Notes: generated by a model from the letters alone, not told the origin. DNA of 64,000 bases from Candidatus Brocadiia bacterium (GCA_050015075.1 JBEKCB010000010.1:1-64000), one strand, 5' to 3'. Counted from the stretch's first letter, positions 26,604-58,719 are shown. Translations and numbers: made by a program.

Positions 26604-26664
26604 GTCTCACCCTGATGCGGGATCAGCAGCCAGTCTCGCCGTTTCGCACTCTGCATCTGCATTA

Positions 26665-27579: not shown

Positions 27580-27629
27580 CACGAATTCCTTGCCCTGGTT
27601 TGCCGATTCCGCGCTCCGCCTGCCGAGGC

Positions 27630-28628: not shown

Positions 28629-28680
28629 GGCCTGTTCTCCTGCGTTTGGCGAAACGCTTCGAAGACAATAACCCACATGC

Positions 28681-39352: not shown

Positions 39353-42106
39353 TTATCGGTAATCGCCGTAAAGCACGAACGCTCCCCAGTAATAAGGATT
39401 CTCGTACTTCTTCATCATCGTAAGCTGCGCCTTTTGAAGCGCTTCAGACTTCGTGAGCCCTGCCAGGAGGTTCTTGTAGAAGAGTTCCATAAGCTCTGCG
39501 GTCGCGCGGTCGTCCACGCACCAGAGGCTCGCCAGGACGCTCGGCGTGCCGGCATACAGGAAGGCGCGCGTCATGCCCATGAACTCGAACCCGCTTCCGG
39601 TGACCTCGCCTGTGCCGGTATTGCAGGCGCTCAGGGTAACCAGGCCGGCGTCGAGGTTCAGATCGAAGATCTCCCGCACGGTGAGCACGCCGTTGTTTTC
39701 ATTATCCCCCGCCAGCCGAAGATTCGAGAGCATCGGCTCCGTCTGATCCATGACGCCGTGACAGGCCAGGTGCAGCACGTCGTAACCCGGAGACAGCTTG
39801 ACGAAGGCGCTCTTGCTCGCCTCGGCGCCTCGCAGGAGGACGCTCTGCGGGAATAGCTTCCCCACGGACTCCGCCTCGACCTCCGCGAACTTCAGTACCG
39901 AGCCGGCCTCCACCAGTTGCGGATTGGCAAGGATCAATGCCTTTTCCATCTTCGGTTTACGTTTTGCCTGACAGAACTTCAGGACAGATCCGCTGGGCGC
40001 GCAGGAGATCGAATAATCCTCCAAGAGATAACGCCCGTTCTCGTCCTTCAGGCAGGCGAACGGGACCAGGTTCATGCCGCCGTATGGCACAATGATGATT
40101 TGCTTCGTTTTTATATAGGGCCTGACGGGTTTGAAGAATTCTTTGTACAGTTCTTGACAGGCTTTGTCCCAGTCTGGATCGGCCCGGGCCTTGGCGGCGG
40201 AATTATCGCCGGCTTTCCGGAAACGCTGGCACAGGCGCTGAACTCGATCATACTGAAAGTCCACACCATGAATGACCTGGAAGCTGTCTCGTGTGACAAT
40301 AGCAATGAAACACTCGTCGTCCTCCCCATTGATCCCTGGCCCGGTTTGGCCGGAATACTCGATCAGCGTGGCCTCGCCGAGGATTTCCTGGATCTGCGGC
40401 AACGTCAGCGGGTCCACCCGGGTCAACGACGTGATTTCCTGATCGGCAAGGCGGACATGCGCTTGCACGGTTTCGAGCGCCTGCGACTGGACCGCCAAGT
40501 CGCGTCGGGCGCTGCGAAGCCCATCCGCCTGACCCGTTTTTTGCAGGAGCGCGACTTGATCCTGGAGTTGAGCCACTTGTGTTTGCAGAGCCTGCACTTG
40601 CATGCGCCGCTGATCATTGAGTTGCTCCCGTGTCTGAGTCGTCTTCCCGCCCATGAGAGCCAGGAACGACGCGGCCCTCGCCCGCTCCGAGGTGAGAAAG
40701 ACCTCCTCGTACCGGCCCAGATGCAAGCAGGCCGCTATTACGGAGCCATATGTGAAGCGGAAGCTCTCAAAACTCAAGGCGGCCCGTTTGGCGCGCTCAT
40801 CAATAACCCGGTTCACATCTTTCTCAAAGTTTGTGACCTGCGCCATTGACTGCTCGTATTCGGATTTGAAGTAATGTTGGTCCTTCTCCGGGTCGGGGTC
40901 AACGGGAGGATAACCACATTCGCGCAAGAGCGCATTCTCCTTATCATAATTCTTCATCTCCGCATATCTTAAGGCCATCGTGTACTTGCACAGCGTCGCC
41001 TCCCCGTTCCATCCGTGCTTTTCGGCGATGGCCAGGGCGTGCTCCAACTCGCCGATAGCCAAGTCGTAGCGAAACTGGCCGGACCAGACCCAATAACTGT
41101 TCGCCAGCACATGGTAAGCGTCGTAAAGCGTCCGATCATCGTTGCCCCGCTTTGCCGCTTCCACTGCAGCCAGAGCGTGCTCATGAGCGGGTTTGCCGCG
41201 CGGGCCCCGCACTTCCTCTACCCGGTTGGCGAAGCCATGATACATGAAAATTTGCGCGGCGGCCGCGTGCGCCCGACTTAGAAGGCAAGGGTCCTTGGAT
41301 TTTTCCGCTGCCGTGATGGCGCGCGGGATAAACGCTTCACCCCTGTCGTAGTCATTCATCACAGTGGCGCAATTGATCCGCGCGATCAGGGCCTCTGTGT
41401 GTTCAGGATTGATCGCGATCGCCTTGTCAAGCCAAAGCGCCTCCTGCGACGGCCTTGTGAGTCTGTTATACCCCTGGCTGACGCGGAAAGCTGAATCCGC
41501 CGAAGGCTTGTCCATGAACTCTTTCTCTGCGGCGCGGATGGACTTGGTCGCGTCGTCATTTCTCTTGATCCAGTACTCGACTTCCTGAACCTTAGCCTGC
41601 GCTCCGACGCGCTGGTAGTGCGCCAGCGCGCGAGGCGCGTCATTGGCGCCGGACCGGTCAGGAGTCCAGCGCGGGACGAAACCATAGTAGTAGTCGCCCA
41701 GGAGAATATCCGGTTGAGCAGCGTGAATGCGCACGTAACGCACCTTCGGGTACATCTCGGCGGCTAGGGAGAGAAATTTCTCGCCCTGGACTGTCGCGCC
41801 CGTTTTCATGCAAGAGTCGCCCAGCCGATAGAGCAGTTCGAAGTCCCGGCAACCCAGTTCGTAAGCCTTTTCAAAACTCAAGCGCGCCTTGAACGCGTCC
41901 TCCTCGACAAGCAAGAGCTCGAGTCCGTCGCGGACGCAGTTGTCCCACTTGGGATCATGTTGGCCGATTTCCATATACTCGACGAGGCTGCACTGATATT
42001 CGCATCTGGGCTGGTCCGGCTGGGGCGAGGCGAGACTGCCGCGCATGCAGAAACCGCCGGCGAACAAAACGGCCAATGTGAACACGGCCTTCTTCGCATT
42101 TTCCAC
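39353..42106 (-). CDS. Signal-peptide TPR-CHAT caspase-like protease (CHAT-1)
   Basis: IIVPYGGMNLVPF, catalytic HLACHG and VTLSACNTG, SLWCVDD, NPYYWGAF; TPR-like N-terminal half; hydrophobic N-terminus. Confidence 0.93.
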   Translation of the reverse strand: MENAKKAVFTLAVLFAGGFCMRGSLASPQPDQPRCEYQCSLVEYMEIGQHDPKWDNCVRDGLELLLVEEDAFKARLSFEKAYELGCRDFELLYRLGDSCMKTGATVQGEKFLSLAAEMYPKVRYVRIHAAQPDILLGDYYYGFVPRWTPDRSGANDAPRALAHYQRVGAQAKVQEVEYWIKRNDDATKSIRAAEKEFMDKPSADSAFRVSQGYNRLTRPSQEALWLDKAIAINPEHTEALIARINCATVMNDYDRGEAFIPRAITAAEKSKDPCLLSRAHAAAAQIFMYHGFANRVEEVRGPRGKPAHEHALAAVEAAKRGNDDRTLYDAYHVLANSYWVWSGQFRYDLAIGELEHALAIAEKHGWNGEATLCKYTMALRYAEMKNYDKENALLRECGYPPVDPDPEKDQHYFKSEYEQSMAQVTNFEKDVNRVIDERAKRAALSFESFRFTYGSVIAACLHLGRYEEVFLTSERARAASFLALMGGKTTQTREQLNDQRRMQVQALQTQVAQLQDQVALLQKTGQADGLRSARRDLAVQSQALETVQAHVRLADQEITSLTRVDPLTLPQIQEILGEATLIEYSGQTGPGINGEDDECFIAIVTRDSFQVIHGVDFQYDRVQRLCQRFRKAGDNSAAKARADPDWDKACQELYKEFFKPVRPYIKTKQIIIVPYGGMNLVPFACLKDENGRYLLEDYSISCAPSGSVLKFCQAKRKPKMEKALILANPQLVEAGSVLKFAEVEAESVGKLFPQSVLLRGAEASKSAFVKLSPGYDVLHLACHGVMDQTEPMLSNLRLAGDNENNGVLTVREIFDLNLDAGLVTLSACNTGTGEVTGSGFEFMGMTRAFLYAGTPSVLASLWCVDDRATAELMELFYKNLLAGLTKSEALQKAQLTMMKKYENPYYWGAFVLYGDYR

Positions 42107-42155
42107 GGCGCTGCTCCTGGTCGTCTCGCTTTCGGCTCAAAAAGCGATCCGACGG

Positions 42156-43715
42156 TTACTGGGACACGGAAACACTGAACTTCCGCGTTCTAGCATCGAA
42201 CTGAAGGCGCTGCTTGTTCGCCTGAAACCACGCCCGCAACTCTTCGTCGCTGCCGCGCTGATCGGTGTAAGTCAGCATCAGGTCTCGGGGCGAGAGGCGA
42301 TAGTCCTCCGGGATCCAAGGTTTGGAGAGGAAGTCCGCCGCGAATTCCAGCCCTTCGACCATGCCGTAGTCAAGCAACACCACGACCATTCTCGTGCGCC
42401 ACCTATTCCCGGAACGCAGCCATGCTTTTTGAATCAACGCCGGCGGCAGGACAAGGCCCGGGATGCGCTGGATGGCTTCATAAGTAATGCCCGGATCGGT
42501 GCCATAGGCGAAGTACCACTTCAGGTCTTCGTATGTGGCCGGATCGCGCAGGTCGGCGACCGCTTCGAGCCACTCCGCGGGCAGGTAATCCGGATGCTCA
42601 GCGAGGCGTTTAACCAGAATCGGCTTGGCTTCCTGGGTCCACTGACGCAAGCGCACGACCGAGGCAAGATCGTAATCCATCTCAAGCGATCCCAGAATCA
42701 GGGACTTGTCCTCGTCGGTGGCCATCCGTTCGATGCATCGAAGGCATGCCCGCCCGATGTATGGATCGGCCCGATTCAAAAGAAGGAGGTCCAGGTAGTT
42801 GTGGCCGACCGGCTCCAGGTAGGCCGCGATCCACTCCGAATCCGCGGGGTCGTCGGACGCGCGCGCGGCCTCTGCTACCTGCCGCAAGTACATCCGGACC
42901 GCGTCCCGGTCAGCGCCGGAGGGCAACCTGAGTTGTTCTGACTGGCCCGTTTTTTCGTCATGCGCCAAGTCGAGATTCCAAGGCAGCTTGACCCACGGGC
43001 TGTCGGAGTCTGTGCGAAACTTTTCGAGCAGCTTTTTGTATTCCTCTCCTTCGCGCAGAGTTTGTTGCAGCGACCAGAAACGCCGGCCGATGAGATAGTT
43101 GTTTCCAAGGTCTTCCCACGAGTCAAATGTGCTCTGCAAAGCCCGGGCGACAGGCATGATGCGCTCCCAGGCTTCGGCTTCCGACAGGTAGCCGACACAG
43201 TATCCCCAGCGGCATACCGAAACATAGCGGCAGTAGTCCCAACCCAGGATACTTTTCTTGCCCAGCCGCTTGTAATATTGCGCTGCAACCTCCATAGCAG
43301 AGTTCGCCTGCGCATTGTTCTTATTCTTCGCCCTGAGGGTGTTCAGCTCATCAGGAGTCAGCGCGGCGATGGTGGACCCCATCCTCTCAAACCGCGCGCG
43401 GTGTCCCTCTTGTTGGAGCCAGCGCAGCGTGTTAAGGAGGTCCTCGCGGTTCGAGACGCTCCACGATCCTCGGAGGGACATCTTCCACCCGCTGATGTCG
43501 CTTGCAGTCCTCTCGCACCCGGCGAGCAGGTCATGACGTCCATGGTTCCGTTCCGTGAGAAGTGCGCACGTCGCAAGCGCCCAGAGTTTTTGGTCACTGA
43601 GTTTGTGCAGCGAGGCAAGGTCCGCCGATCGCTCATCTTTGTCGGACGGCGTCCCGCCTTGCGCTGCCGCGCCAACAACGACCGCGCAAAAGAACAATGA
43701 GACAAATCGCATCAT
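42156..43715 (-). CDS. Secreted DUF1266 (YbeU/YbeR-like) protein with a C-terminal domain shared with 46615-48000 and 48119-49549
   Basis: Signal peptide; GWDYCR...RWGYCVGYLSEAEAW...FDSWEDLGNNYLIGRRFW; C-terminal LRDPATYEDL...WFQANK. Confidence 0.82.
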   Translation of the reverse strand: MMRFVSLFFCAVVVGAAAQGGTPSDKDERSADLASLHKLSDQKLWALATCALLTERNHGRHDLLAGCERTASDISGWKMSLRGSWSVSNREDLLNTLRWLQQEGHRARFERMGSTIAALTPDELNTLRAKNKNNAQANSAMEVAAQYYKRLGKKSILGWDYCRYVSVCRWGYCVGYLSEAEAWERIMPVARALQSTFDSWEDLGNNYLIGRRFWSLQQTLREGEEYKKLLEKFRTDSDSPWVKLPWNLDLAHDEKTGQSEQLRLPSGADRDAVRMYLRQVAEAARASDDPADSEWIAAYLEPVGHNYLDLLLLNRADPYIGRACLRCIERMATDEDKSLILGSLEMDYDLASVVRLRQWTQEAKPILVKRLAEHPDYLPAEWLEAVADLRDPATYEDLKWYFAYGTDPGITYEAIQRIPGLVLPPALIQKAWLRSGNRWRTRMVVVLLDYGMVEGLEFAADFLSKPWIPEDYRLSPRDLMLTYTDQRGSDEELRAWFQANKQRLQFDARTRKFSVSVSQ

Positions 43716-43773
43716 GGCGTCATCCTTTTTAGGCGCGCAAGTCCGCAACAACGCCTCAGACCGATACTTCCAA

Positions 43774-46590
43774 TCATCTATAGTCTCCGTACAACACAAA
43801 CGCTCCCCAGTAATAAGGGTTCTCATACCTCTTCATCATCACCAGTTGCGCCTGCTGCAATGCCTCGGCGCGGCCCATGGTTTTCAGGTTCTTGTAGAAT
43901 TCGGCCATCAGTTCGCTGGTCGCGCGGTCATCGAGCTTCCAGAGGCTGACCACGACCGACGGCGCGCCGGCGAGGAGCCACGCGCGGCTCATGCCGACGA
44001 GCTCGACCCAGCCGGTGGACATGCCGCCGGATCCGCTTTCGCACGCGCTGAGCACCACCAGGCCTGCCTTCACCGGATAGCTGCAGATCTCGCTGGCGGT
44101 CAGCCTGCCGTCGCTTTGATCGTCGGGCGCCAAAGCCAGCGCGGATTTCATCGGGTAATCCGCGTTCAGCAATCCGTGACAGGCGAAATGCAGGACGTCG
44201 GCCGTGGTCAGCGCCTGCTTGACCGCCGTCGCGGTGGCTTGCGCGCCGAGGAGCACGTTCGCCTTCGGGAAGACTTCGCGGATCGCGGCGGCTTCCATTT
44301 CGGCGAACTTGAGCGATGAGTTCGGGTTGGGCAGCGCGGGGTTGGCGATGACGGTGACTTCGCCGCCGACCCGGCGGTTCCGGGCCAGAGCATAGCGCAG
44401 GACGCCGAAGCTGGGGACGTAACTGACGCTGTGCTCCTCGAGCAGCAGCTTGCCGGCCGGGTCGCGCAGCAGGTGCATCGGCACTTGGACGAGCAGCCCG
44501 CCGGGAATGATGATCAGATGCTTGCGCGACTTGATGTCGTCGGCGACCGGCTTGAGGAGCAGTTCGTAGAGCGCGTCGTTGGCCTTGCGCAGTTCGGCGG
44601 GATCGGGCCCGGGCGCAGGCGTCTGGATGGCTTTGACGTAGAGTTGCACGATGGGCTCGATACCCGGCTTTGTGTCACCCGCATCCGGGAGGAAGAGCCC
44701 GCGGCAAGGGTAAACCTTGCATTCCGTGTCGGTCACAAAGGCAATGAAGCCTTCATCCACGAAGCGCACCCACGGGACGAAATACAGGAGGACCGCCGCG
44801 TCGGCAGGCAGCAGCGCCTGCATCTGCTTCACCGTCATGTGCGGCGGGATCTTCGCGCCGGTGACCTCGAGTTCGTCGGCCGCGACGTCGGCGCTGACCT
44901 GTTGAAGGGCGGTGGCCTGGACCTGAAGGTCCCGCTGGACGGATTCGACGGCGGCGGCATCGGAAGTCTGCCGCGCCAGGGCCAATTGGCGAGTGAGCGC
45001 GGCCACGTGCGATTGCGCCGCCGACTGGGCGTCCTTGCGCTGCGCCAGGGAGGCGGCCTTGCTCTCTTCGAATTTGGCGCCGAGGATCATGCCGAGGGTG
45101 CGGTTCAGCAGGCGCTCGGCGATCTCAACGGCCTCGTCCTGCTTCCCGAGGTGCATACAGGCCGTAATGGCATAGTCATATGCCCCGCGCTGGTTAGCGC
45201 CGACGACCTCGCGCTGGAGCCGTTCATTGGGCGCACGCAGCGTCATTTGCTCGAAACCGTCTATGCTGGGCTTCTCGTGGTCATAGATGTACTGCCAGTC
45301 ACCGCGCTGGACGCGAACGACGATGTGCGGTTGGATGCCGGCCTTTCGGGCCCATTCTTCGGACTCATCCAGCTTGCCCATAAAGGCGAGACGCTGCGCA
45401 ATCATGAACATCGAGTCGTGGGTGCGGTCGGTCCAATGATTTTTCTGCGCCAGCGCGAAGGCCTTTTCGTAATATTCGACGGACGTATCGCCTCCGACCC
45501 CGAGAAAGCCCATTTGGATAAAAGCGCGGAAGCGCAGGTTGTCATTGTTCAATTCTTCGGCAATGGCCCCGGCGCGCGCCGCCAGTTCACGGCGGTTGTA
45601 CTGGCGGAGCCTCTCGATGTTCGCCGGATCGGGATTTTCGAGGAGGTTATCCCAGACAAAAGCCGCCTGCGTGTGGAGCACCCAGAACAGACACTCGCGG
45701 TCCCCGGACTTCTCGACGATCTGGATCGCTTTAACACCGAAATCCTCCGCCTCTTTCCACTTCTTGACCCCGCACAAAATGAAGTGGTGCATGCGAACGA
45801 CGTCGGGGTCTTCGGGCGCATTGGCCAGGAGCACCTCCGAGGCCGGCAGGGCTTTGGCGAAGTCCATCCACTTGTGGTGATTCTCCCAATCATCAGCCCG
45901 GTGACCGTTCGCCGTGCCTGGCAGATTGTTAAATGGGCTCCAGTTGCGCTCGGCCTCCGCTTCAAGGACTTTAAGGACTTTCCTGGCCGCGGCCACGCTG
46001 GGTTCGGCGGCGGCTTTCGCCAATGTGTCTGCTTTTTCCTCTTCACCTTTGGCGAGGGACTCTATCGCCGGCAGGTTATCCGCCAACTGCTGCTTCTCGG
46101 GGCAGTCCGGGTAGGCCTCCAGCGCCGCGCGGACCAGCTTGCCGGCTTCCACCACTTCCGCCGGCCGTCCCTGGCCGAGATCAGCGTAGGCCTGCCATTG
46201 CAGGCATGCGCCGCGCACCCAGGTGCGCACCCACTCGGGCCGGCCGGGCTCTGCGGCGGCCGCAGCGCCCTTGCCCAGGATGTCGTGGCTCGCGGACAGG
46301 TCGTTCGATTCGAACAGGAGGTATCCATACATGAGGAGCACCGTCGGGTCTTTGGCGCCGCCCTCGATGAGCGGCTTCAATTCCGCCAGCGCTTCGTCAC
46401 GATTCTTCCTGAGCGCGAGCGCAGCCTTGTAAACGGCTGCATCAACCTTGAGGTCCGGCTCGCCGTAGGCGGAGTAGAGACTGTACCAACTGAATTGGGA
46501 CCAGAGGGTGATCCGGTACCCTTGGTCAGCACTCGCGGCCACGCTCGTCATTCCGAGCGCCAGTGCGAGTGCAATCATTTTGAAGCGCAT
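43774..46590 (-). CDS. Signal-peptide TPR-CHAT caspase-like protease (CHAT-2)
   Basis: Clear signal peptide MRFKMIALALALGMTSVAASA; HFACHG, VVLSACESG, SLWKLDD; C-terminus YENPYYWGAFVLYGDYR identical to CHAT-1. Confidence 0.93.
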   Translation of the reverse strand: MRFKMIALALALGMTSVAASADQGYRITLWSQFSWYSLYSAYGEPDLKVDAAVYKAALALRKNRDEALAELKPLIEGGAKDPTVLLMYGYLLFESNDLSASHDILGKGAAAAAEPGRPEWVRTWVRGACLQWQAYADLGQGRPAEVVEAGKLVRAALEAYPDCPEKQQLADNLPAIESLAKGEEEKADTLAKAAAEPSVAAARKVLKVLEAEAERNWSPFNNLPGTANGHRADDWENHHKWMDFAKALPASEVLLANAPEDPDVVRMHHFILCGVKKWKEAEDFGVKAIQIVEKSGDRECLFWVLHTQAAFVWDNLLENPDPANIERLRQYNRRELAARAGAIAEELNNDNLRFRAFIQMGFLGVGGDTSVEYYEKAFALAQKNHWTDRTHDSMFMIAQRLAFMGKLDESEEWARKAGIQPHIVVRVQRGDWQYIYDHEKPSIDGFEQMTLRAPNERLQREVVGANQRGAYDYAITACMHLGKQDEAVEIAERLLNRTLGMILGAKFEESKAASLAQRKDAQSAAQSHVAALTRQLALARQTSDAAAVESVQRDLQVQATALQQVSADVAADELEVTGAKIPPHMTVKQMQALLPADAAVLLYFVPWVRFVDEGFIAFVTDTECKVYPCRGLFLPDAGDTKPGIEPIVQLYVKAIQTPAPGPDPAELRKANDALYELLLKPVADDIKSRKHLIIIPGGLLVQVPMHLLRDPAGKLLLEEHSVSYVPSFGVLRYALARNRRVGGEVTVIANPALPNPNSSLKFAEMEAAAIREVFPKANVLLGAQATATAVKQALTTADVLHFACHGLLNADYPMKSALALAPDDQSDGRLTASEICSYPVKAGLVVLSACESGSGGMSTGWVELVGMSRAWLLAGAPSVVVSLWKLDDRATSELMAEFYKNLKTMGRAEALQQAQLVMMKRYENPYYWGAFVLYGDYR

Positions 46591-46614
46591 GGGCGGAGTC
46601 CTTTCTGCGGTTTC

Positions 46615-48000
46615 TTACGGTGCCGGCACGAACCTTCGCCGGTTCTCGTCGAACGCAAGTTTCCCTTTATTGGCTTCAAACCATGCGTGGATATCCTTGT
46701 CCGACCCGCGCAGGCCCGTCCGTTCGCGTATTGCCTTGCCCAACTTTTCACTGTACCAATCATTTGTGGCCGGCGAATCAAATCTCGCCACAGCGAATTC
46801 CAGTGCATCCATGAAGCCGTAATCCATGGCCGCCGCGGCCACCTGGCACCGGAACTCTGCTTTGATGCCGGTCCACGACTTCGAGGCAGTCCACACGCGT
46901 GCGACAGCGTCCTTTAACTGAATGCCGGGCAGATTCTTGATGTCGTCGTAAATATTGAGGCCGTTCTGGTTGTTCTCAAAATGCCAGACGAGGTCATCAT
47001 AGGCGGCAGGATCGCGCAGTGCGGCGGCAGCGTGCAGGACCCCCACGTCCGTGTACGGCGAGCGCTCCGCGATGCGCTCCAGGAGGAATGGGCGCATCTC
47101 CTGAATCCATCCCAGGCGCTGCATGGGATCGGCAAGGAATTCCCGGAGGGGCAACCATTTCAGCAGCAACGCCTTGTGCTCGGGCCGCACCAGGCTCTTC
47201 ACGGCCGCCTCCACGTCATTGTGAGTTATCAATATCTGCAGGCCGGAGGTCACGTTGGTGCCCCAGATTTCAAGGAGCACGTCGAGGTTCTCCGGCCCCA
47301 CCTTTTCCAGCATAGCGATTTCCGGGTCGTTCCATGCGGGGGCGGGTCTCTTAACGGCCTGCAAAAGGACCTGACGGGCGTAGGCGCGCGCCTGTTCCTT
47401 GGTCGGATGGGAGGGCAAGGTGAGCGCGGCCAGGTGACTGCTTTGTTCCTGTTGGACCGCGAGTTGCTTTTTGGCCTGCTGCAGACCGGACTCGGCCTCC
47501 TTGCGGATCTGTTCGTCAACCTCGGGCGCGCGGATGGAGAGCGCCAGTTCGAAGGACTCAACAGCCTCTTTATATTTGCCGCGTGACTGGTAATTCCATC
47601 CCTGCAAATTCTCGCAGTAAAAGCGAATGAAGTCCAGTTCCGGTTTTCCCGCGGAACGCGCGAGCGCCAATTTGAAACGTTCGACGTTGGTGCCGTAGTT
47701 GTTGCCGGTCAGGGCTAGGTTCCGGGCGTCAATGAAGAGCGTGACGGGGGAGCGGCAGCCCGCCGCGTACGCCTTCTCCAGCGCCTCCACCGAAAGGGCC
47801 AACTGCGCCGAGTCTGTGCGGCCGGTCTTTGGGTCGTACGCCTTCGCCCAGTGGTCAATCCCCTCGCGGACAAGGGCGTCCCACTTCGGGTCCGTATCGC
47901 CGAGTTTCTGATACTTCTCATACCACCAATTTGCATCTTGGCCGAAAGCCGTCGCCGAGAGCAGAAATACCAGCATCGAGAATGCGAAACGGAGTTTCAT
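46615..48000 (-). CDS. Secreted TPR-containing partner protein A
   Basis: Signal peptide ending TAFG; DPKWD motif; TPR GKYKEAVESFELAL; shared C-terminal domain. Confidence 0.85.
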   Translation of the reverse strand: MKLRFAFSMLVFLLSATAFGQDANWWYEKYQKLGDTDPKWDALVREGIDHWAKAYDPKTGRTDSAQLALSVEALEKAYAAGCRSPVTLFIDARNLALTGNNYGTNVERFKLALARSAGKPELDFIRFYCENLQGWNYQSRGKYKEAVESFELALSIRAPEVDEQIRKEAESGLQQAKKQLAVQQEQSSHLAALTLPSHPTKEQARAYARQVLLQAVKRPAPAWNDPEIAMLEKVGPENLDVLLEIWGTNVTSGLQILITHNDVEAAVKSLVRPEHKALLLKWLPLREFLADPMQRLGWIQEMRPFLLERIAERSPYTDVGVLHAAAALRDPAAYDDLVWHFENNQNGLNIYDDIKNLPGIQLKDAVARVWTASKSWTGIKAEFRCQVAAAAMDYGFMDALEFAVARFDSPATNDWYSEKLGKAIRERTGLRGSDKDIHAWFEANKGKLAFDENRRRFVPAP

Positions 48001-48104
48001 GTCAATCCCTCATTTGTCATCACCGGCTTCAACTCCGCCAGCGCCGCGCCACGGACCTTCCTGAGGCCGAGCGCCAGTACGAGGGCGATCATTTTGAAGC
48101 ACAT
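47997..48104 (-). pseudogene. Internally deleted remnant of a CHAT-2-like 5' end (35 codons)
   Basis: MCFKMIALVLALG-LRKVRGAALAELKPV matches CHAT-2 MRFKMIALALALG[46 aa]LRKNRDEALAELKPL; the upstream AAAGGACT RBS region is also conserved. Confidence 0.85.
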
Positions 48105-48118
48105 GGGTGAAGTCCTTT

Positions 48119-49549
48119 TTACGGAGTTGGCACGAACATTCGCCTGTTCTCGTCGAACACGAGTTTGCCTTTATTGGCTTGAAACCATGTGCGGATATCG
48201 TCGTCCGATCCACGCTGGCCGGTCCGTTCGCGTATCGCCAGGCGCAATTGGTCATTGTTCCATTTGCCCAACTCCGGCGAACCCAATTTCGCGACGGCAA
48301 ATTCCATGGCTTCCGTCACGCCGTAATCCATGGCCGCACGTGCCATCGAGTACCGGCGGGGTGCCCTCCAGTCGGTCCATGACTTCGATGCCGCCCACAT
48401 ACGCACCACTGCGTCCTTCAACTGAATGCCGGGCAGATTCTTGATGTCGTCATAAATATTGGCGCCGTTCTGGTTGTTCTCAAAATGCCAGACGAGGTCA
48501 TCATTGGTGGCAGGATCGCGCAGTGCCGCGGCGGCCTGCAGGACTTCCACACACGTGTACTGTGAGCGCTCCGCGATGCGCGCCAGGAGAAATGGGCGCA
48601 TGTCCTGGCCCCATCCTTTGCGCTGCATGATCTCGACAAGGTCTTCCCGGAGTGGCAGCCATTTCAGCAGCACCGCCTTGTTCTCGGGCCGTACAAGGCC
48701 GTCCACAGCAATCTTCACAAAGTTGTCAACCCTCACGCTCTGCAGTCCTCCGGTGGTCCCCCAGATTTCGAGGAGCACGTCAAGGTTCTCCGGCCCCACT
48801 TTTTCCAGCATGGCGATTTCAGGGTAGACCAGGTCAAGGCGCTCCCGCGCCACTTTGTCCAGCATTGCGATTTGCCCAGGGCTGCTTCCGCCTTGCTTCC
48901 TGCCGATCAGGAGAAGAACCCCGCGGACGTATGCGCACGCCTGTTCCTTGGTCGGATGGGGCGGCAAAGTGAGAGCAGCCAGTTGGCGGCTTTGCTCCTC
49001 GTCGGCCGCCACTTTCTCCCTGGCCTGCTGCAGACCGGCCCTGGCTTCTTTGAGAATATCCTCCTCGACATCGGGCGAGCTGAGCGACAGCGCCATCTCG
49101 AAGTACGGGATAGCCTCCTTGTACTGGCCCCCGCGCGCGTATCGCCATGCCAGGGCATTTGCGCAAGAGATGCGAACGAAGATGAGATCCGGCTTGTTCT
49201 CGGTCCGCTTGAGCGACTCGTCAAAGCGAACAAACACCGTCGTGCCATCGTTGTTGACCTGAGCGAGGTTCCGCGCGTCAATGAAAAGCGCGATGGGGCA
49301 GCGGCAACCGGCCGCGTAGGCCTTCTCCAACGCCTTCACCGAAAGCGCAAGTTCCGCCTGCGGGTTGCCGCCCGTCGTCGCATTTCCAGCCGCCTCCCAA
49401 TGGTCAATCCCCTCGCGCACGAGCGCATCCCACTTCGGGTCCGTCTGGCCGAATTTCTGGTACTTGTCATACCACCAATTCGCGTCATAGCCGAAGGCCC
49501 GCGCCGAGAGAAGAAAGACCAGCGTCATGAACACGGGGCGCAGTCTCAT
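48119..49549 (-). CDS. Secreted TPR-containing partner protein B (paralog of A)
   Basis: DANWWY.KYQK.G.TDPKWDALVREGIDHW and long near-identical DNA blocks shared with 46615-48000. Confidence 0.85.
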   Translation of the reverse strand: MRLRPVFMTLVFLLSARAFGYDANWWYDKYQKFGQTDPKWDALVREGIDHWEAAGNATTGGNPQAELALSVKALEKAYAAGCRCPIALFIDARNLAQVNNDGTTVFVRFDESLKRTENKPDLIFVRISCANALAWRYARGGQYKEAIPYFEMALSLSSPDVEEDILKEARAGLQQAREKVAADEEQSRQLAALTLPPHPTKEQACAYVRGVLLLIGRKQGGSSPGQIAMLDKVARERLDLVYPEIAMLEKVGPENLDVLLEIWGTTGGLQSVRVDNFVKIAVDGLVRPENKAVLLKWLPLREDLVEIMQRKGWGQDMRPFLLARIAERSQYTCVEVLQAAAALRDPATNDDLVWHFENNQNGANIYDDIKNLPGIQLKDAVVRMWAASKSWTDWRAPRRYSMARAAMDYGVTEAMEFAVAKLGSPELGKWNNDQLRLAIRERTGQRGSDDDIRTWFQANKGKLVFDENRRMFVPTP

Positions 49550-50412
49550 CTCAAGCCCTCCGATTCCAGAAAGCGGTTCAGGGTCTTGCGGAACCTGAAT
49601 CGGTCCACGAACCGCCCCAGGCCGGCGAAGCCGATTGTGGCAGCCCCAACAGCGTGCGTCGGCAGTCTCTGCTTCACGCAGAAAAACCAAGCGTATGCAA
49701 GCCCGAACCCAACGAGGGGCACCGTCAAGTCCGAGGCCAGGCTGGACATGCTTGGGATCATCCGGAGCAATCTGCCGGCGAGATCTTTATTTGCAGCCAC
49801 GGCATCTTCGTCGCCGGGGCATTGCCGCTCAATCTCCGAGAAGAATTCCTTGACCTCCCGGGCCTCTTTCTGCGCCGCTTCCTGGTCTTCCGCCGTGCAA
49901 AGCAATAGGGGGCCGATGTCGGTAGTGACGATCACGCCCCAATATCGGAGCGGGCCGAAGAAGTCGAATCCAAGGCCGAGGTTTATCTCGCGCACGTCCG
50001 GCAATTTCGAGGGCAACTGGAAGTCCGCGTGGTAATCTTTGCCTGAACTCAGGTAGTGGACAGCCCCGCCCGGTGACTGCCGGTCAAGGGTGACTTCGTA
50101 AGCTACGGTGTTCGTGCGCCGGCCGATCAGGAGCGCGCCGGCCGGGCCGAGGAAGAGCAGCGCCATGACAACATCGCTCCCATTGAGCGATAACAAGAAG
50201 AAACCGATCATCGCCAGTGAGACCAGAAGTTCGATATTAAGGAAGTAGAGGCCCGGCGCCGGAGGCAGGCCCAGGCCGTAAAGCCGGCGGCGGCTCATCG
50301 CCGAAAGCCGGCGCAGGCGCAGACCCAATTTGCCGTCAGCGCCGATGCCGCGCGGCATGTACCACCCCGCATCGCTCCCGTGAACCCACTTATACCACCA
50401 TCCCGGTTTCAT
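49546..50412 (-). CDS. Hypothetical membrane protein (~4 TM)
   Basis: Two pairs of hydrophobic segments; stop overlaps the partner-B start (ATGA). Confidence 0.65.
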   Translation of the reverse strand: MKPGWWYKWVHGSDAGWYMPRGIGADGKLGLRLRRLSAMSRRRLYGLGLPPAPGLYFLNIELLVSLAMIGFFLLSLNGSDVVMALLFLGPAGALLIGRRTNTVAYEVTLDRQSPGGAVHYLSSGKDYHADFQLPSKLPDVREINLGLGFDFFGPLRYWGVIVTTDIGPLLLCTAEDQEAAQKEAREVKEFFSEIERQCPGDEDAVAANKDLAGRLLRMIPSMSSLASDLTVPLVGFGLAYAWFFCVKQRLPTHAVGAATIGFAGLGRFVDRFRFRKTLNRFLESEGLR

Positions 50413-50447
50413 GATGGCGCGAGCCTTATTATCCCGGCGCTCTCAGA

Positions 50448-50771
50448 CTACGGTTCCGTCGTGTACATGTCGCTCCCGACGCTATCGCGCAAGAGCTGTT
50501 TGAGACGTGAGCGCAACAGCAGATGGTCTCCGAATCTGTTGAGTCCGGTCCACCCTACAAGCAGTGGAATGATGGCAAAACTAGGCACACGGACCCGGTC
50601 CGCCGAGTTGCACGCGATGAGTAGAAAAAGGCCGTTGCCGAGGCAGGCCACTAACGAGTCAAGAATGAGGTCCCATCCGCTCGGCTTCATCCGGCGTAAC
50701 CGCTCGACGATGACTGAAATATCTGCTTGCACCGCACTACGGGCTTGCTTGGCGTTATCACTCTCCGTCAT
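50448..50771 (-). CDS. Small 2-TM membrane protein
   Basis: ATGA overlap with the upstream gene; two hydrophobic segments. Confidence 0.6.
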   Translation of the reverse strand: MTESDNAKQARSAVQADISVIVERLRRMKPSGWDLILDSLVACLGNGLFLLIACNSADRVRVPSFAIIPLLVGWTGLNRFGDHLLLRSRLKQLLRDSVGSDMYTTEP

Positions 50772-51775
50772 GGCTTTTTCTCCAGAGTCGTGTCGCCTTT
50801 CACCTCAAACTCAAAACTCCCCTCCGCCCACGCCGTCTCGTCCAGGCCCTTGATGGTGATGGCCAGGTCGCGCGTGACAGAGCCTTCCGTCTTCGGGTCG
50901 AGCGAGCGGAAAGCGCTGACGTTATACTGCTCGGGCAGGAGCGGAACGTTGTTCTCCGTGGCGAAGATTTTCAACTTCTCCAGGCCCGCGGGGCCTTCCG
51001 CCTTGATGGTGAAATTCTGGAAGCGGCCGGGGATGCTGTAAACCTCGTCCTTCTTGACGTAGTTGGTGGCGTAGAACCGATTCGGGAAGAGGACGGTGAT
51101 CTGGCCGCTGCTGCCCATGTTGAAGATGGTGACGTAGCAGGAGCGGTCGGCCTTGAACTTGATGACCAGCTCATCGCCGACTTTGTATTCGGTCTTGTCG
51201 GTCCAGACCGAGATACTGAACCGCTCCTTGTTGCTCTGCTTGACCTTCTCGATGTCCTCCCAGAGCGGCGTAGTGGGCGTCTTGATCCGCTTGTCCAGCA
51301 GGAAACTCTCCTGCGCGACGACCTTCGACTGCGTGTCCACGATGCGCAGCGTCAACTGCAACTTGTGCCCCAGGTCCACGGTATGGCCGAAGATGAATGC
51401 GTTCACGCCGGCGATTGTTCCCAACTCCGGCGCCGTCGCCGGATCGAGCATGCCCTTCTCGGAGAGCTTGTGCTCCTCGACGATCTGCGCCAGCTTCTCG
51501 CGCTCCAGGAGGTCGACCTTCCCGCTCTTCGCGAGGTCCATAAACAGCTCATCGGCCAGCAAACGCCCCTCGACCGAGAAACTGCCGTCGAGGTAGCTGA
51601 ACGGCAGGATCGCAATCCGATTGCCGCCGAGCTTGGGAACGGAGGAGATGACGAAATCGGAGAGCGCGGCAACCTGTTTCGCGCTATCGGCCTGGCTCTC
51701 CTGCGCCGACGTTCCACTTGCGGCGCTGCAAGCGAGCAGAACCAGAACGACCAGCGCGTGCTTCGACTGTGTCAT
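50768..51775 (-). CDS. Secreted FlgO/CsgG-like + DUF4384 protein
   Basis: Signal with possible lipobox LLAC; IAILPF, LLEREKLAQIVEEHKLS..G..D; DUF4384-like VWTDKTEYKVGD...CYVTIF...VLFPN...GPAGLEKLKIFAT. Confidence 0.85.
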   Translation of the reverse strand: MTQSKHALVVLVLLACSAASGTSAQESQADSAKQVAALSDFVISSVPKLGGNRIAILPFSYLDGSFSVEGRLLADELFMDLAKSGKVDLLEREKLAQIVEEHKLSEKGMLDPATAPELGTIAGVNAFIFGHTVDLGHKLQLTLRIVDTQSKVVAQESFLLDKRIKTPTTPLWEDIEKVKQSNKERFSISVWTDKTEYKVGDELVIKFKADRSCYVTIFNMGSSGQITVLFPNRFYATNYVKKDEVYSIPGRFQNFTIKAEGPAGLEKLKIFATENNVPLLPEQYNVSAFRSLDPKTEGSVTRDLAITIKGLDETAWAEGSFEFEVKGDTTLEKKP

Positions 51776-51799: not shown

Positions 51800-54700
51800 T
51801 CATCTTGGGTTTCCCTGCGGCGTCACGGCCGCGGCGGCCGCATTGACCTGAAACTCATCCACCGGAACCGTTATCCAGGTTCCGTGTGCGATCACGGCGA
51901 CGCAGCCGTTCCCGCTCTCATCTTCCGCGGTACTTCCTTGTCCCTCATCCAGCGGAAGCAGCATCACGGTGCTCGGGAGTTTCGTCAGCCGGATCGGCGG
52001 CGTGAAGTCCTCCTTGTAGAGCGCCTCGTTGCTCAGGCGCGCTCCGGCGATCCGGCCGTTGAACCGGCGACCGATCAGCAGGTTGTTGTCATTGGTCGTC
52101 AATTGAGGTTCCTCGGCGCACGCCGACACTTTCCGGCCGTTGATGTAGTTGCGGAGTTCCTGCCCATCGAAAACCATCGCAATGTGCAGCCAAGTCTTCG
52201 TCGGGAGCGGATAGTACGTATTCTCAGGCGAAGGCTTCCAGTTGAACGGCGCAACATCCGACTCGAGTTTGCCGTCAGGGGTGATCCGAAGCTGCCAGGG
52301 GCCGAGCTTCGGAGTATCGCGGGTCATAATAATGCCTCGCGCCGGATCATCGGCCCAGATCCAGGCTTCTGCGGTCATGGCCTTGGTCATGTTGAAGACA
52401 GGATTGTACTGAACGGCGATCTCGCCTTCATTTCCGTCGAACGAGATGACCGGACGCTGCGGAACGAGTGTGCCCTGCGGTCCGGGTTTTGGCGGCGGGT
52501 GTCTCATCTGCTCTTTGATCCGCCGTGTCTCCGCCGCTATCTGTTTTACCTCTGCCTCATGAGCCGGATCGGGCTGAAACTCATCCACCGGCACCGTCAT
52601 CCAGGTCCCGTTCACGATCGTGGCGATGCAGCCGTTCCCGCTCTCGTCTTCCGCGGTAATTCCTTGTCCCTCGTCCAGCGGAAGCAGCATCACGGTGCTC
52701 GGGAGTTTCGTCAGCCGGGCTGGCGGCGTGAAGTCCTCCTTGTAGAGCGCCTCGCTGCTCAGGCGCGCTCCGGCGATCCGGCCGTTGAAAAAGCGGCCGA
52801 TCAGCAGGTTGTTGTCATTGGTCGTCAATTGGGGTTCCTCGGGGCATGCGGACACTTTGTGGCCGTTGATGTAGTTGCGCAGTTCCCGCCCGTCGAAGAC
52901 CATCGCAATGTGTAGCCACGTCCGCGTCGGCAGGCGGCGGTAAGTGCTCTCGGGCGAGGGGTTCCAGTTGGCCGGCGCAACATCCGACTCGAGTTTGCCG
53001 TCAAGGGTGATCCGAAGCTGCCATGGACCGAGCTTCGGAGTATCGCGAGTCATAATCTCGCCATGGGTCGGATCATCTGCCCAGATCCAGGCTTCTGCGG
53101 TCATGGCCTTGGTCATATTATTAAAGACTGGGTTGTATCCAACGCGGATCTCGCCGGTGCTGGCGCTTTGGTCGAACGAGATGACCGCGCGCTGCGGAAC
53201 GGGTGTTCCCTGCGGCCCCGTTATTGGCGGCGGGCGTTTCATCTGCTCTCTGAACAGCTTCACCTCTGCCTCCGACCGCTTGACCTCTGCCTCTGACCGC
53301 TTCACCGCTTCCTCTAGCCGCTCGAAGGATGGGGCGCCTCCCTTATCGCGTACGGCGAAAACCGGGGTCGAGTCTTCGCCCGCAATTACTACCGCGTCCC
53401 TGCATTCCACGGCCAGCAACTGCTGGCCGAGAATGTCCTGCGCCCGCAGCGTAAGCGGCGGCTGATCGTTGAAGAACTCCACCTTCACCTGTGAGGATAT
53501 CACGTTGGGCCAATCGGGATCAGGCTCACATATAATCTTGTCGCCAAACACTCCGACCGGCCAATATTCGCGGACGGGCCCGCACGGCCAAGGGTCTTTC
53601 TTAGAGCGGGTGTAGGCGTGTTCGGTCAGGTAACAGATGCTATCGGTCGCGGGATCATAGAGGCCGATGCCTTGGATAAGGATTCGGTCGAAGCACCAGC
53701 GAGCGTGAGCGCGCTCGATATGTTCCAGCCGCTCGGATGCAAAGCTGATTTTTCGCGAGGCGGCGTCGAATTTCCAGAGTCCCCGCCGCGTTTCGTGCCC
53801 CTGCGTATTGTTGATGCCGAACCAGATGCAGTTTCGCACGGGATCAGACAGGATGTACGGCACGTCGTACGTGGGCAGCCCGTCAAACAGGTTTTGCGGC
53901 GCCTCGGATCGGCGGCACGAGCACAGTGTGGCGGAACGGCCTGTCTTCGGATCAAACTCAACGATTGCCCCAGGCGACGTCCCGAGGTACCACTTGCCGT
54001 TCAGACACGCAAATGACGTCAGTTTGAGTGACGGCAACCCATCGGCTTCTGTCCAAAGCCTCGTCTTTCCTTTCTCGAAGGTCACGATCCCTATGTCACT
54101 CATGGACGCGAGCCACTGTCCTGCCTCGTCCCGCGTCAAAACCGCAGTGCAATGCAGATTTCGCTTTGCCGCTGGCTTGAGCATAATCTCGCCGAGAATG
54201 CTGCGATTGCCCCCATCCAGCGGAACGGCCACGAGCCGAACGCGATCGCCTTGGTCGCCCTCGCTCCCCGCCTCAAGAAGAACTGCGCGATTGCCGTCAG
54301 GCTGGATCGCATTGACCCGGTAACCAGTCTCTGTCGTCAAGAGCTTCACGACGAACTGTTCCGGCCTGAGATCGGGCGCCTGCGGTTTGGGAGCGGGCGG
54401 AGCCGCCAGTCCCAGTTGCCTTTCCAGGAAACCTATATGTGACTTTGCATCTCCCTGGGCGTCAAGGTTGGGTGGAAAGGTGACATTGACTGTGTCCTGA
54501 AAGTCCTTCGCGATCTCGTAGGCTTCCCGGAAACGACCTTCGTTCTCAAAGGCTGACAACCAGAACTTAATGCAATTTGCCCAATTCCACTCTGACGCCA
54601 GCCTCGCATGCTCAAGACGAAGCATCGGACGAAGAATCGCATCCCCGTACTTGATAAGAAGGTCCGGGTCATTGTTATAGGTCCAGAGGAATATATCCAT

Positions 54701-56602: not shown

Positions 56603-56687
56603 CGCCCAACGTCCCTTCGGAATCGCATGTCGTTCCGCAAACTGCCGCCCGGCATGACGAGCGCATCGCTCCACGCAACGGCGTTTA

Positions 56688-57482
56688 TCATTCCTGCAGA
56701 TTGGCTTCCATGTGCACGTATTCAGCTCCATGCCAAAACGTGACTCTCACAACGATGTTATCGCTGACCCAGACATCCGACCTGATCCCGGGAAATGACT
56801 CCTTGTATCTGACGCAATCATAAAACTTCTTTCCGATTATAAGCCTTTCGGTCCCCTCGCACGTTATGGTACCTGCCTGCACCGCCCAAATATCAAAAAG
56901 GACCGGCTCTGCATACTGCGTGAAGGTGTAGACGCCGCCGATGTTTCGAGGAAGCAGTGGGGCGAGTCTCAGCAGCGCGTTGAACGTCAGAATGCCCTCC
57001 TGGAAATTCCATTGTTCCGTCCGGACAGGTCCGCGGCCATTGGGATCATCGAGTATCTTTGCTGTTCCATTCTCATAACTCATTTCGCGCACTGTTCTGT
57101 CGTCTTTGCTGATATCCAGAGTGATCTGCTGTGGACGGAGCAAATCACCTTTTGGAAATCGCACCATTCGGTCGAAGACCATGCCGCCAAAGGCCGGCAC
57201 CACGGCGATAGTGTCATGCAAGACAATGTCGTCTTTGTCAGATTGAGTGGACACGACCATCTTTCCGTATTCCTTGCTTTCTCCCTTCAGGACGATGGCC
57301 GTCCATGTGTAAGTGTGGCTTCCGCCCTTTTCCAGTTTCTGCAGGTCAAAGGTTACGTCCTTCAGCGGCTTTGGTGGGACGCTTTCGTCCGCCGCCAGCG
57401 CCTGCATCGTGAAAGTAATACATGACAAAACGGCTAAGGCCGCCGGGATGACCGTCACGGTAGAACGATTCTTTCTCGTCAC
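56688..57482 (-). CDS. Secreted beta-rich hypothetical protein, visibly lower GC
   Basis: GGAGA RBS before GTG 57482; signal peptide ending QALA. Confidence 0.7.
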   Translation of the reverse strand: MTRKNRSTVTVIPAALAVLSCITFTMQALAADESVPPKPLKDVTFDLQKLEKGGSHTYTWTAIVLKGESKEYGKMVVSTQSDKDDIVLHDTIAVVPAFGGMVFDRMVRFPKGDLLRPQQITLDISKDDRTVREMSYENGTAKILDDPNGRGPVRTEQWNFQEGILTFNALLRLAPLLPRNIGGVYTFTQYAEPVLFDIWAVQAGTITCEGTERLIIGKKFYDCVRYKESFPGIRSDVWVSDNIVVRVTFWHGAEYVHMEANLQE

Positions 57483-57614: not shown

Positions 57615-58676
57615 CTACTTTTTCTGCTCGGCCAGTTTTGTGCGGGCCTCCACGGCCTCCGGGATGAGCTTCAGGGCGATTTCCGCGGCGGCTTTTTGTA
57701 GCGCGGACTTCCCGGCGATATTCTCGGCGAGGTCCACGGCTGTGGTCGTGGCGCGGCCGACGGCGAGGATCTTGCCGCTCTTGACGTCCACCGCCTTCAT
57801 CTCCACCCGCGCCTTGACGGAGATGAGCTTCTCGGTGGTCCCGGCGTATTCGCTGAACCCCTCGCCGACGATGATGATATCCGCTTCGCTGAGGCCGTTC
57901 GGGATCTCCTTGCCGGTTTCCTTGAGGAAGTCCCTCGCCCAGTCGCTCAGCCCGGCGTTCTTCGTGCTGATGAGCGTGGCGCCGACGGATTCGAGGAGGT
58001 AGCCCACTTCCGTCTCGGCGGCCGGATCAATGGTCATACGCCCGACGTGCGTTTCGCAAATCAGGACGGCGAATTTCGGCAATGTCTTGCCCTCAAGCCG
58101 CTTCTGCAGCGCCGCGATCATGTCCTTTTCGGTCACCACTTTCGGCATCATGGCGGCGGCCTTGTCGGCCATGTATGCGCTGATCTTGGTCCCCAGGTCC
58201 TGGACGATCTCGTCGAGTTTCCCGTCGGTGGGTCCCTTGGCGATGAGCGCGCCGACCTGGCTGGTCTCGGTGCTCATGATCTTGGCGGTGATGAAGAGCT
58301 GCTGGCCGACGATCATGGCCCGGCCGGTGATAAGGAACTTCGCGCCGGTCAGCTTGCCGATCTTCGCCTTGGTGGCCTCATCCACGATCCCGGTCTGCCC
58401 CAGGGCCATTTCCTCGAGGATCTTCTTGATCTGGGCCCGCTCGACCAGTTGCAGATTGCTGTCCGCCGTCAGGAACGCGGTCAGCAGGTCGGGGATCGCC
58501 TCGCCATAAGAAGTCGTCTCCTTGGTGCCGGTCTCGAAGTTCAGCACGGCGACGAGATAGGGTCCTCCCGGCGCCTGCGCGGCCTTCTCCGGAGCCTTCT
58601 CCTGAGCCAGTCCTGCCGTCGCCAACCACGCCAGGGCCAGCACGGCCACGCTCACAAACAATCTCCCGCACTTCAT
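57615..58676 (-). CDS. CsgG/HfaB family secreted protein
   Basis: GGAGGAGG RBS; signal peptide; VAVLNF, LVERAQIKKILEEMALGQTGIVD...KIGKLTGAKFLITG; second related domain. Confidence 0.85.
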   Translation of the reverse strand: MKCGRLFVSVAVLALAWLATAGLAQEKAPEKAAQAPGGPYLVAVLNFETGTKETTSYGEAIPDLLTAFLTADSNLQLVERAQIKKILEEMALGQTGIVDEATKAKIGKLTGAKFLITGRAMIVGQQLFITAKIMSTETSQVGALIAKGPTDGKLDEIVQDLGTKISAYMADKAAAMMPKVVTEKDMIAALQKRLEGKTLPKFAVLICETHVGRMTIDPAAETEVGYLLESVGATLISTKNAGLSDWARDFLKETGKEIPNGLSEADIIIVGEGFSEYAGTTEKLISVKARVEMKAVDVKSGKILAVGRATTTAVDLAENIAGKSALQKAAAEIALKLIPEAVEARTKLAEQKK

Positions 58677-58719
58677 GGTCCTGCCTCCTCCCAAAAATAA
58701 ATTTCGCTGCCCCTTGTGC

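Follow-up and report, generated by a model that had tools for sequence, protein, structure and literature searches.

Introduction

Separase cuts after Arg in (S/D/E)xExxR at an unstructured site, and the CHAT proteases of Craspase cut after Met (VGMKK) or Leu (IDLD), as given in passages of PMC11506125. In the same passages, DdvA of Myxococcus xanthus (PDB 8rot) is a transmembrane anti-sigma factor with a periplasmic TPR-CHAT region, for which a site-1 protease role, with cleavage of its own linker in trans, was proposed but not demonstrated. DUF4384 is named in passages of PMC7475262 and PMC6426788 as an accessory domain of orthocaspases, including variants without a catalytic dyad, and of kinases. 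Outside CRISPR type III-E, almost nothing is known of what bacterial CHAT proteases cut and with what specificity, and DUF4384 has no assigned function. The window analyzed here (the whole stretch of 64,000 nucleotides from Candidatus Brocadiia bacterium, GCA_050015075.1 JBEKCB010000010.1:1-64000) carries at 39353-61913, on the minus strand, a sigma factor of the extracytoplasmic function (ECF) type, a zf-HC2 anti-sigma factor, three CsgG/LpoB-like proteins (one with a DUF4384 domain), two TPR proteins, a DUF1266 protein and two apparently secreted TPR-CHAT proteases (CHAT-1 and CHAT-2). This gene set is a parallel to DdvS/DdvA and to Csx29-Csx30-RpoE.

An octapeptide, S-[AV]-x-R-D-L-x-[VI], had been singled out in both CHAT proteases and in the DUF4384 protein, and the original prediction had read R↓DL within it as an autoprocessing and substrate site. 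Our analysis favors, at a probability of roughly 55%, two family-intrinsic conserved motifs that are alike by chance: a signature of the DUF4384 family, and a clade-specific motif at a helix start in the linker of the TPR-CHATs, which would serve for packing or as a latch. Coincidence was judged more likely than a common cleavage site because the DUF4384 copy is a hallmark of the whole domain family.

The genes and octapeptides concerned were as follows.

39353-42106, minus strand: CHAT-1 gene, 917 aa, TPR-like helices and CHAT domain aa 648-915 (Pfam CHAT E=6.5e-76)
40490-40513, minus strand: SARRDLAV, CHAT-1 aa 532-539, from the translation; aligns homologously with the CHAT-2 copy
43774-46590, minus strand: CHAT-2 gene, 938 aa, hydrophobic N-terminal leader, TPR array, two long helices with a short turn, CHAT domain aa 672-936 (Pfam CHAT E=1.2e-69)
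44920-44943, minus strand: SVQRDLQV, CHAT-2 aa 550-557, from the translation
50768-51775, minus strand: exported 335-aa protein, LpoB/TolB-N/CsgG-like at about aa 30-165 and DUF4384 beta-sandwich at about aa 185-326 (Pfam DUF4384 E=7.7e-24, CsgG E=6e-8; LpoB Z=13.1)
50858-50881, minus strand: SVTRDLAI, aa 299-306 of the 335-aa CsgG/LpoB-like and DUF4384 protein, from the translation

All three octapeptides are read from the minus strand, where they were found at the predicted coordinates; plus-strand translations of the same positions are unrelated peptides. The two CHAT proteins are 35% identical and their motifs align with each other, in agreement with the caveat that these copies are homologous. 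RDL alone is common, as had also been cautioned, with 790 occurrences in the crude proteome described below.

The RDL motif of the CHAT linker

CHAT-2 aa 440-938 was used for a homologue search, which gave 380 proteins at E<=0.001 among 8000 scored candidates, 120 of them listed. The near clade comprised 27 homologues from outside the window (P0004-P0031 minus P0024, the window's own CHAT-1). Among the matches listed, RDL was present in 26 of these 27 and RDI in 1, with a near-clade consensus of S-[IVL]-Q-R-D-L-x-V-Q. In a 32-sequence alignment R553, D554 and L555 were at least 90% conserved, and across residues 510-670 the only other columns at this level were E575 and L594. H805 and C850 (CHAT-2 numbering) were invariant in the 32 aligned sequences, CHAT-1 included, and from their HxxxHG and SAC contexts we take them to be the catalytic dyad; E492 of CHAT-2 was likewise invariant. 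In 20 rows of distant CHAT proteins still aligned at the site, RDL was found in 1, RSL in 2 and RDY in 1, the motif being lost from P0032 onward.

In both CHATs the motif falls within predicted long helices, and some 115 residues separate it from the Pfam CHAT domain that follows. In the AlphaFold2 model of CHAT-2, for which the mean predicted local distance difference test (pLDDT) score was 86.3, the motif stands at the start of a predicted helix (545-578), just past a turn (542-544) that follows helix 499-541, with pLDDT of 84-89 over these blocks. As judged from the alignment, RDL is a real, clade-specific conserved island in an otherwise variable helical linker.

The C-terminal signature of the DUF4384 family

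The DUF4384 protein of the window was aligned with 19 full-length orthologues (63-87% identity). T301, R302, D303, L304 and A305 were invariant in all 20 sequences; position 299, counted from the alignment, was S in 16, A in 2 and G in 2. Conservation of the motif in orthologues, on which the original prediction had staked its reading, was therefore found in both families (RDL in 26/27 CHAT homologues, TRDLA in 20/20 DUF4384 proteins). Mean column identity in the orthologue alignment was 66%, so the whole protein is highly conserved, and for that reason the invariance of TRDLA says little on its own.

The C-terminal 151 aa were then searched against 1.84 billion representatives, giving 2996 proteins at E<=0.001, many of which aligned over nearly the whole query, with homology over about 140 residues. 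From 149 proteins among the matches listed, 230 aligned DUF4384 stretches were obtained, 227 of them less than 50% identical to the query. The Pfam DUF4384 model (81 positions) stops before the C-terminal extension that bears the motif. Residue frequencies in the stretches less than 50% identical to the query were as follows (numbering of the window protein).

Column 302: R 67%, K 24%
Column 303: D 77%
Column 304: L 57%, I 35%
Column 306: V 46%, I 19%, L 11%
Column 308: L 41%, V 16%
Columns 316-318: W 82%, A 69%, E 63%

The family signature was [RK]-D-[LI]-x-[VI]-x-[LV], and a conserved W-A-E follows it after about 14 residues. Among the matches listed, [RK]D[LIVM].[VIL] occurred in 78 of 120 stretches covering the site and the full octapeptide pattern in 3 of them. 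Proteins with tandem DUF4384 domains carried the motif at the same place in each repeat. A Pfam scan of 108 DUF4384 representatives gave Peptidase_C14 in 1 and CHAT in 0, the rest being stand-alone or combined with CsgG, FlgO, LPP20 or OmpA. In a distant FlgO-PEGA-DUF4384 relative the site reads MRGISIA, and the 15 kb examined there contain no CHAT gene; at the locus of one DUF4384 orthologue (L022, 84% identity) no CHAT or TPR homologue was found in 5.8 kb downstream. Because the signature is family-wide, the repeats carry it, CHAT fusions number 0/108 and loci lack a nearby CHAT, the DUF4384 protein owes its motif, on these alignments, to the domain family and not to any tie with CHAT. The motif is not described in the passages of the DUF4384 literature that were available.

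Alternation of hydrophobic residues at 304, 306 and 308 looks like a beta-strand. Mutual information over 86 full-length DUF4384 domains gave a hint that 299-308 covaries with S187 of the first strand, from sequences too few for the hint to be trusted. A PDB sequence search with the DUF4384 part returned nothing significant, the best match being the protease inhibitor potempin A at E=0.48. A fold search with the same part of the model returned generic beta-sandwiches (macroglobulin, PKD, Ig-like) at Z 7-7.9, a range commonly met.

Two further features of the domain were observed. In one DUF4384 subfamily (P0239, P0275, P0222, P0228, P0192, P0206, P0284, P0264) a second copy of the motif, G-A-R-D-[IV]-x-[VI], stands just after the first strand (VWT); the C-terminal copy is kept as well, so that the motif flanks the beta-sandwich on both sides. 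The best fold matches of the DUF4384 part (aa 184-326; 50798-51226, minus strand) were macroglobulin domains of CD109, alpha2-macroglobulin and complement C3/C5 (Z 7.2-7.9 over 88-93 residues); these and the potempin A match are within noise, yet they point to protease-inhibitor-type domains.

Chance expectation of the likeness

A crude proteome of the window's genome was assembled (3568 open reading frames [ORFs], 1,455,472 aa), in which some high-GC ORFs are spurious. S[AV].RDL.[VI] matched 4 times, 3 of them in the window, against about 0.96 expected from composition. The pattern was fitted after the fact and two of its matches are paralogues. The fourth match, SAHRDLGV, lies in a 771-aa ORF on contig C29 (9314-11629, plus strand; L043) without a Pfam family, perhaps one of the spurious high-GC ORFs.

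Two unbiased comparisons were made within the window. When all aligned CHAT-1/CHAT-2 8-mers were compared with the remaining 42 ORFs of the window (19,622 aa), the score of the RDL match was exceeded by 10 pairs and equalled by 3. When at least 4 of 8 residues were required to be invariant in both CHATs, 596 matches on 277 diagonals were counted versus 519 +/- 33 in 100 shuffles. From the 8-mer scan and the shuffle comparison, therefore, the third copy is not beyond chance within this genome alone. In these window scans the match is ordinary.

An 11-column matrix was also built solely from the 27 CHAT homologues outside the window and run over the crude proteome. It scored 24.8 for CHAT-2, 20.5 for CHAT-1, 17.5 for an unrelated TadE-like ORF and 16.4 for the DUF4384 site. 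The C29 ORF with the fourth pattern match also supplied, through GDVQRDLARDA, the fifth-best match overall and the third-best outside CHAT proteins. Across 459 CHAT windows tried in this way, 9 windows in 5 islands gave a top-2 match inside the cluster. The islands were as follows.

482-483: TPR likeness to the 461-aa TPR protein
523
547-550: RDL motif
712
789

Besides RDL, three of the five islands are not TPR likeness yet reach the top 2 in the cluster. If some 40 of the windows are taken as independent, the per-window rate leads one to expect, by our estimate, a rank-1 island somewhere in about one-fifth of cases. The CHAT/DUF4384 likeness is not significant once all CHAT islands are tried; it is suggestive, not secure.

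Cleavage specificity and weaker matches

The original prediction had placed the cut after a basic residue. Separase does cut after Arg, and this part of the argument holds; as a rule for CHAT proteases it does not, given the Met and Leu sites of Craspase, and the separase consensus is itself absent. The CHAT clade reads S-[IVL]-Q-R and the DUF4384 orthologues S-V-T-R, with Ser at P4 and no Glu there. As to structure at the site, the models give a predicted helix at pLDDT 84-89 in CHAT-2 and, from an alignment of 20 close sequences, a stretch below 50 in the DUF4384 protein. Because CHAT proteases also cut after Leu or Met, nothing fixes a cut after Arg; were there any cleavage in the motif, D-L↓x could be argued for just as well as R↓D-L. 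A prediction was made for a complex of CHAT-2 aa 585-938 with DUF4384 part aa 185-335; it gave no answer (score 0.00, without controls) and weighs neither for nor against cleavage.

Two weaker matches had been noted as well, and both are present in the translation.

42273-42293, minus strand: SPRDLML, DUF1266 protein, from the translation
60576-60590, minus strand: SRDLF, zf-HC2 anti-sigma factor, from the translation

Neither is conserved. RDL stood at the anti-sigma position in 2 of 23 aligned sequences, the others having RELF, SDLF, ESLF and the like, so that no conserved site-1 motif matching the CHAT motif was found in the ectodomain. At the DUF1266 position RDL stood in 0 of 5 distinct aligned sequences (paralogues and distant homologues, with no true orthologues).

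Competing explanations

Several observations weigh against coincidence. By the CHAT-derived matrix the DUF4384 site was the second-best non-CHAT site in 1.455 million residues, and it ranked first or second in four consecutive CHAT windows; non-CHAT cluster proteins make up 0.45% of the proteome, and p is about 0.01 for this rank if the linker island is chosen beforehand. Within the CHAT clade the island is conserved at nearly every position and not on one helix face only, and several homologues are rich in Gly, Ser or Pro just upstream of RDL. In the AlphaFold2 model of the DUF4384 protein, built from 20 close sequences only, residues 278-308 (between strand 264-273 and the last strand, 316-326) have pLDDT below 50, and for this reason the motif might sit in an exposed loop. 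On one contig (L023) a DUF4384 orthologue is directly followed by a CHAT gene with RDL, and contig sizes that recur among CHAT, DUF4384 and anti-sigma orthologues (673703, 8698, 110035, 63151, 65637), taken by themselves, suggest that these lie on common contigs. In the literature passages cited, DUF4384 is indeed associated with caspase-fold proteases, and in some Csx30 substrates of the Craspase CHAT it forms the C-terminal domain, the cut being in the linker (passages of 10.1101/2022.08.17.504292). Several of these observations, with the conservation of the motif in both families, speak for a shared protease site: secreted CHAT-1 and CHAT-2 would recognize x-x-x-R-D-L-x-[VI] in themselves (processing in trans) and in the DUF4384 protein, feeding an ECF sigma/anti-sigma pathway, with the cut after Arg as in separase and metacaspases or after Leu as in Craspase (D-L↓x). 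A common compartment, suggested by the leaders and the anti-sigma ectodomain, and the trans self-cleavage proposed for DdvA would fit such a site. We nevertheless consider it rather unlikely. The DUF4384 motif is family-wide, with a caspase fusion in 1 of 108 representatives; it is retained in relatives without CHAT in the DNA examined; and fusions of DUF4384 to pseudo-orthocaspases, which are without the catalytic dyad, occur as well, according to the passages cited above. The CHAT copy is predicted to be helical at good confidence, the (S/D/E)xExxR consensus of separase is lacking, the Csx30 cut is described in the linker and not in the C-terminal domain, and the match loses significance after correction for the islands tried. 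The R↓DL site that the original prediction had proposed for both autoprocessing and substrate cleavage is accordingly not favored, and the earlier interpretation is partly supported: conservation holds, and a shared cleavage site does not need to be invoked.

A role confined to the CHAT proteases would leave the DUF4384 motif unrelated and make RDL an autoprocessing, pseudosubstrate or dimer-interface element of CHAT-1/CHAT-2, for example one that faces the partner's active site as the DdvA linker may do. Conservation at nearly every position of the island within a variable linker is consistent with this, as is the description, in the passages on DdvA, of a dimer in which each CHAT active site faces the opposite protomer. 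Six contig sizes (673703, 9165, 5967, 16669, 10149, 8802), each shared by a CHAT-1-like and a CHAT-2-like homologue, suggest, from size alone, that the two paralogues are inherited as a pair, both with RDL. Since a predicted helix is unlike what a protease substrate needs and the pairing is read from contig sizes, we hold this role to be quite unlikely. Short peptides are commonly bound by TPR domains, and several TPR-bearing proteins are encoded in the cluster; the TPR arrays of the CHATs, or the cluster's two TPR proteins, could thus bind RDLxV uncut, recruiting the DUF4384 protein or holding the CHAT linker. Conservation of the motif in both families would suit such docking, which meets the same statistical and family-wide objections as cleavage and is very improbable. 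At long odds, x-x-x-R-D-L-x-[VI] could be a recognition element through which CHAT-1 and CHAT-2, in response to a signal at the envelope, carry out mutual processing at the linker, cut the loop of the LpoB-like/DUF4384 protein and couple to the ECF sigma and anti-sigma factors; by extension, the [RK]-D-[LI] loop could be a general bait or docking loop for caspase-fold proteases. If true, the bait loop would account for the recurrence of DUF4384 both with orthocaspases and in certain Craspase substrates.

Chance likeness of two motifs, each intrinsic to its own family, accounts for their presence, their conservation, the family-wide spread and the predicted helix with no shared cleavage site. 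Under this favored reading the DUF4384 motif would be a strand that helps to close or edge the beta-sandwich, as its alternating hydrophobic residues suggest. In the CHATs, two long helices link the TPR array to the protease domain; the motif, where the second of them starts, would most likely make a packing, hinge or latch contact by which the resting state of the protease is set. We infer both structural roles from the alignments and models.

Gene cluster and genomic context

The remaining genes of the cluster were assigned as follows.

42156-43826, minus strand: DUF1266 protein, 556 aa, between both CHAT genes (Pfam)
46615-49690, minus strand: two TPR proteins, 461 and 523 aa, at 46615-48000 and 48119-49690 (Pfam TPR hints)
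51800-56731, minus strand: giant 1643-aa protein with CsgG-like segment and LamG-like domain (Pfam)
57615-58730, minus strand: CsgG/LpoB-like protein
60312-61313, minus strand: zf-HC2 anti-sigma factor, 333 aa (Pfam zf-HC2 E=1.2e-8)
61341-61913, minus strand: ECF sigma factor, 190 aa, heading the cluster (Pfam Sigma70_r2, Sigma70_r4_2, Sigma70_ECF)

In the direction of the minus strand the order is ECF sigma factor, zf-HC2 anti-sigma factor, a 552-aa unknown, CsgG/LpoB-like protein, a 271-aa unknown, the 1643-aa CsgG-like/LamG protein, the DUF4384 protein, a 288-aa unknown, the two TPR proteins, CHAT-2, the DUF1266 protein and CHAT-1. Both CHAT proteins matched Pfam PF12770 far above the 24-bit cut-off, and CHAT-2 also matched Peptidase_C50 (E=2.4e-9). 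The DUF4384 (PF14326) profile match spans aa 196-275 of the 335-aa protein. The ECF sigma factor adjoins the anti-sigma factor, whose alignment shows a hydrophobic span and a conserved C-terminal region, consistent with one membrane span and an ectodomain. Hydrophobic N-terminal leaders were read from the sequences of CHAT-1, CHAT-2 and the DUF4384 protein, and on account of these leaders the CHATs, the DUF4384 protein and the anti-sigma ectodomain would share an envelope compartment.

CHAT and DUF4384 orthologues were not found in a same-genus genome (G001, 91% complete). In 40 relatives' genomes there was no DUF4384 orthologue, only distant homologues, and CHAT identity reached 36% at best; in those distant CHATs the linker could not be aligned. 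On these grounds the cluster looks like an accessory island. Of 112 pattern matches in genome contigs searched for DUF4384 orthologues, 0 were relatives. Among metagenome proteins, matches of 60-96% identity exist.

Over its C-terminal ~260 aa the DUF1266 protein shows 33-36% identity with the C-terminal portions of the two TPR proteins. No Pfam family was found over this common domain; genes similar to it occur in four relatives' genomes, some in tandem. No literature joining CHAT and DUF1266 was found.

Outside the cluster, a 608-aa ORF at 31653-33479 (minus strand) combines an ABC-transporter ATPase (aa 21-154) with an NHL/six-bladed beta-propeller (aa 401-604), and is either a fusion of an unusual kind or a joint reading of two genes. 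A run of BatA, VWA, DUF58 and GATase1-like genes at 22597-31656 (minus strand), resembling an aerotolerance operon, adjoins the cluster.

Comparison with known systems

The CHAT-2 model was compared by Foldseek with chains of Csx29, DdvA and separase, giving E values of 6e-16 to 1e-11, as for a TPR-CHAT fold.

Craspase Csx29, 8eey_B: E=6.4e-16 (best structural match)
Anti-sigma DdvA, 8rot_A: E=1.1e-15
Separase, 9hms_C: E=6.7e-13

With separase (Peptidase C50) the window proteases have the CHAT fold in common; separase cuts after Arg, whereas the window motif is without Glu at P4 and is predicted to be helical in CHAT. The DUF4384 protein resembles other PF14326 proteins in carrying the family-wide [RK]-D-[LI]-x-[VI] ... 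W-A-E C-terminal extension. Were the octapeptide truly a recognition site, an envelope CHAT protease would for the first time have a substrate rule, and DUF4384 a function. As it stands, the analysis defines a clade-specific conserved island in a TPR-CHAT linker, a family-wide C-terminal signature of DUF4384 beyond the Pfam model, and a conserved set of ECF sigma, anti-sigma, paired CHAT and DUF4384 genes that parallels DdvA and Craspase and can be tested at the bench.

Like DdvA/DdvS, the cluster has an ECF sigma factor and a zinc-finger anti-sigma factor, and like DdvA its TPR-CHAT proteins would lie outside the cytoplasm, as the N-terminal leader suggests. Unlike DdvA, the window CHATs are a separate, apparently secreted paralogous pair not fused to the anti-sigma factor, which is small (333 aa) and in which RDL is not conserved; for DdvA, self-cleavage is itself a hypothesis and no cleavage motif has been defined. 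With Craspase (type III-E CRISPR; Csx29, Csx30, RpoE) the cluster has in common a triad of CHAT protease, ECF-type sigma factor and DUF4384-bearing protein, the last in some Craspase systems. It differs in that the Pfam scan, which covered a part of the window ORFs, brought no CRISPR-Cas genes to notice, in that the window proteins appear to be exported, and in that Craspase, in the passages cited, cuts Csx30 in the linker after Met or Leu and not in the DUF4384 part.

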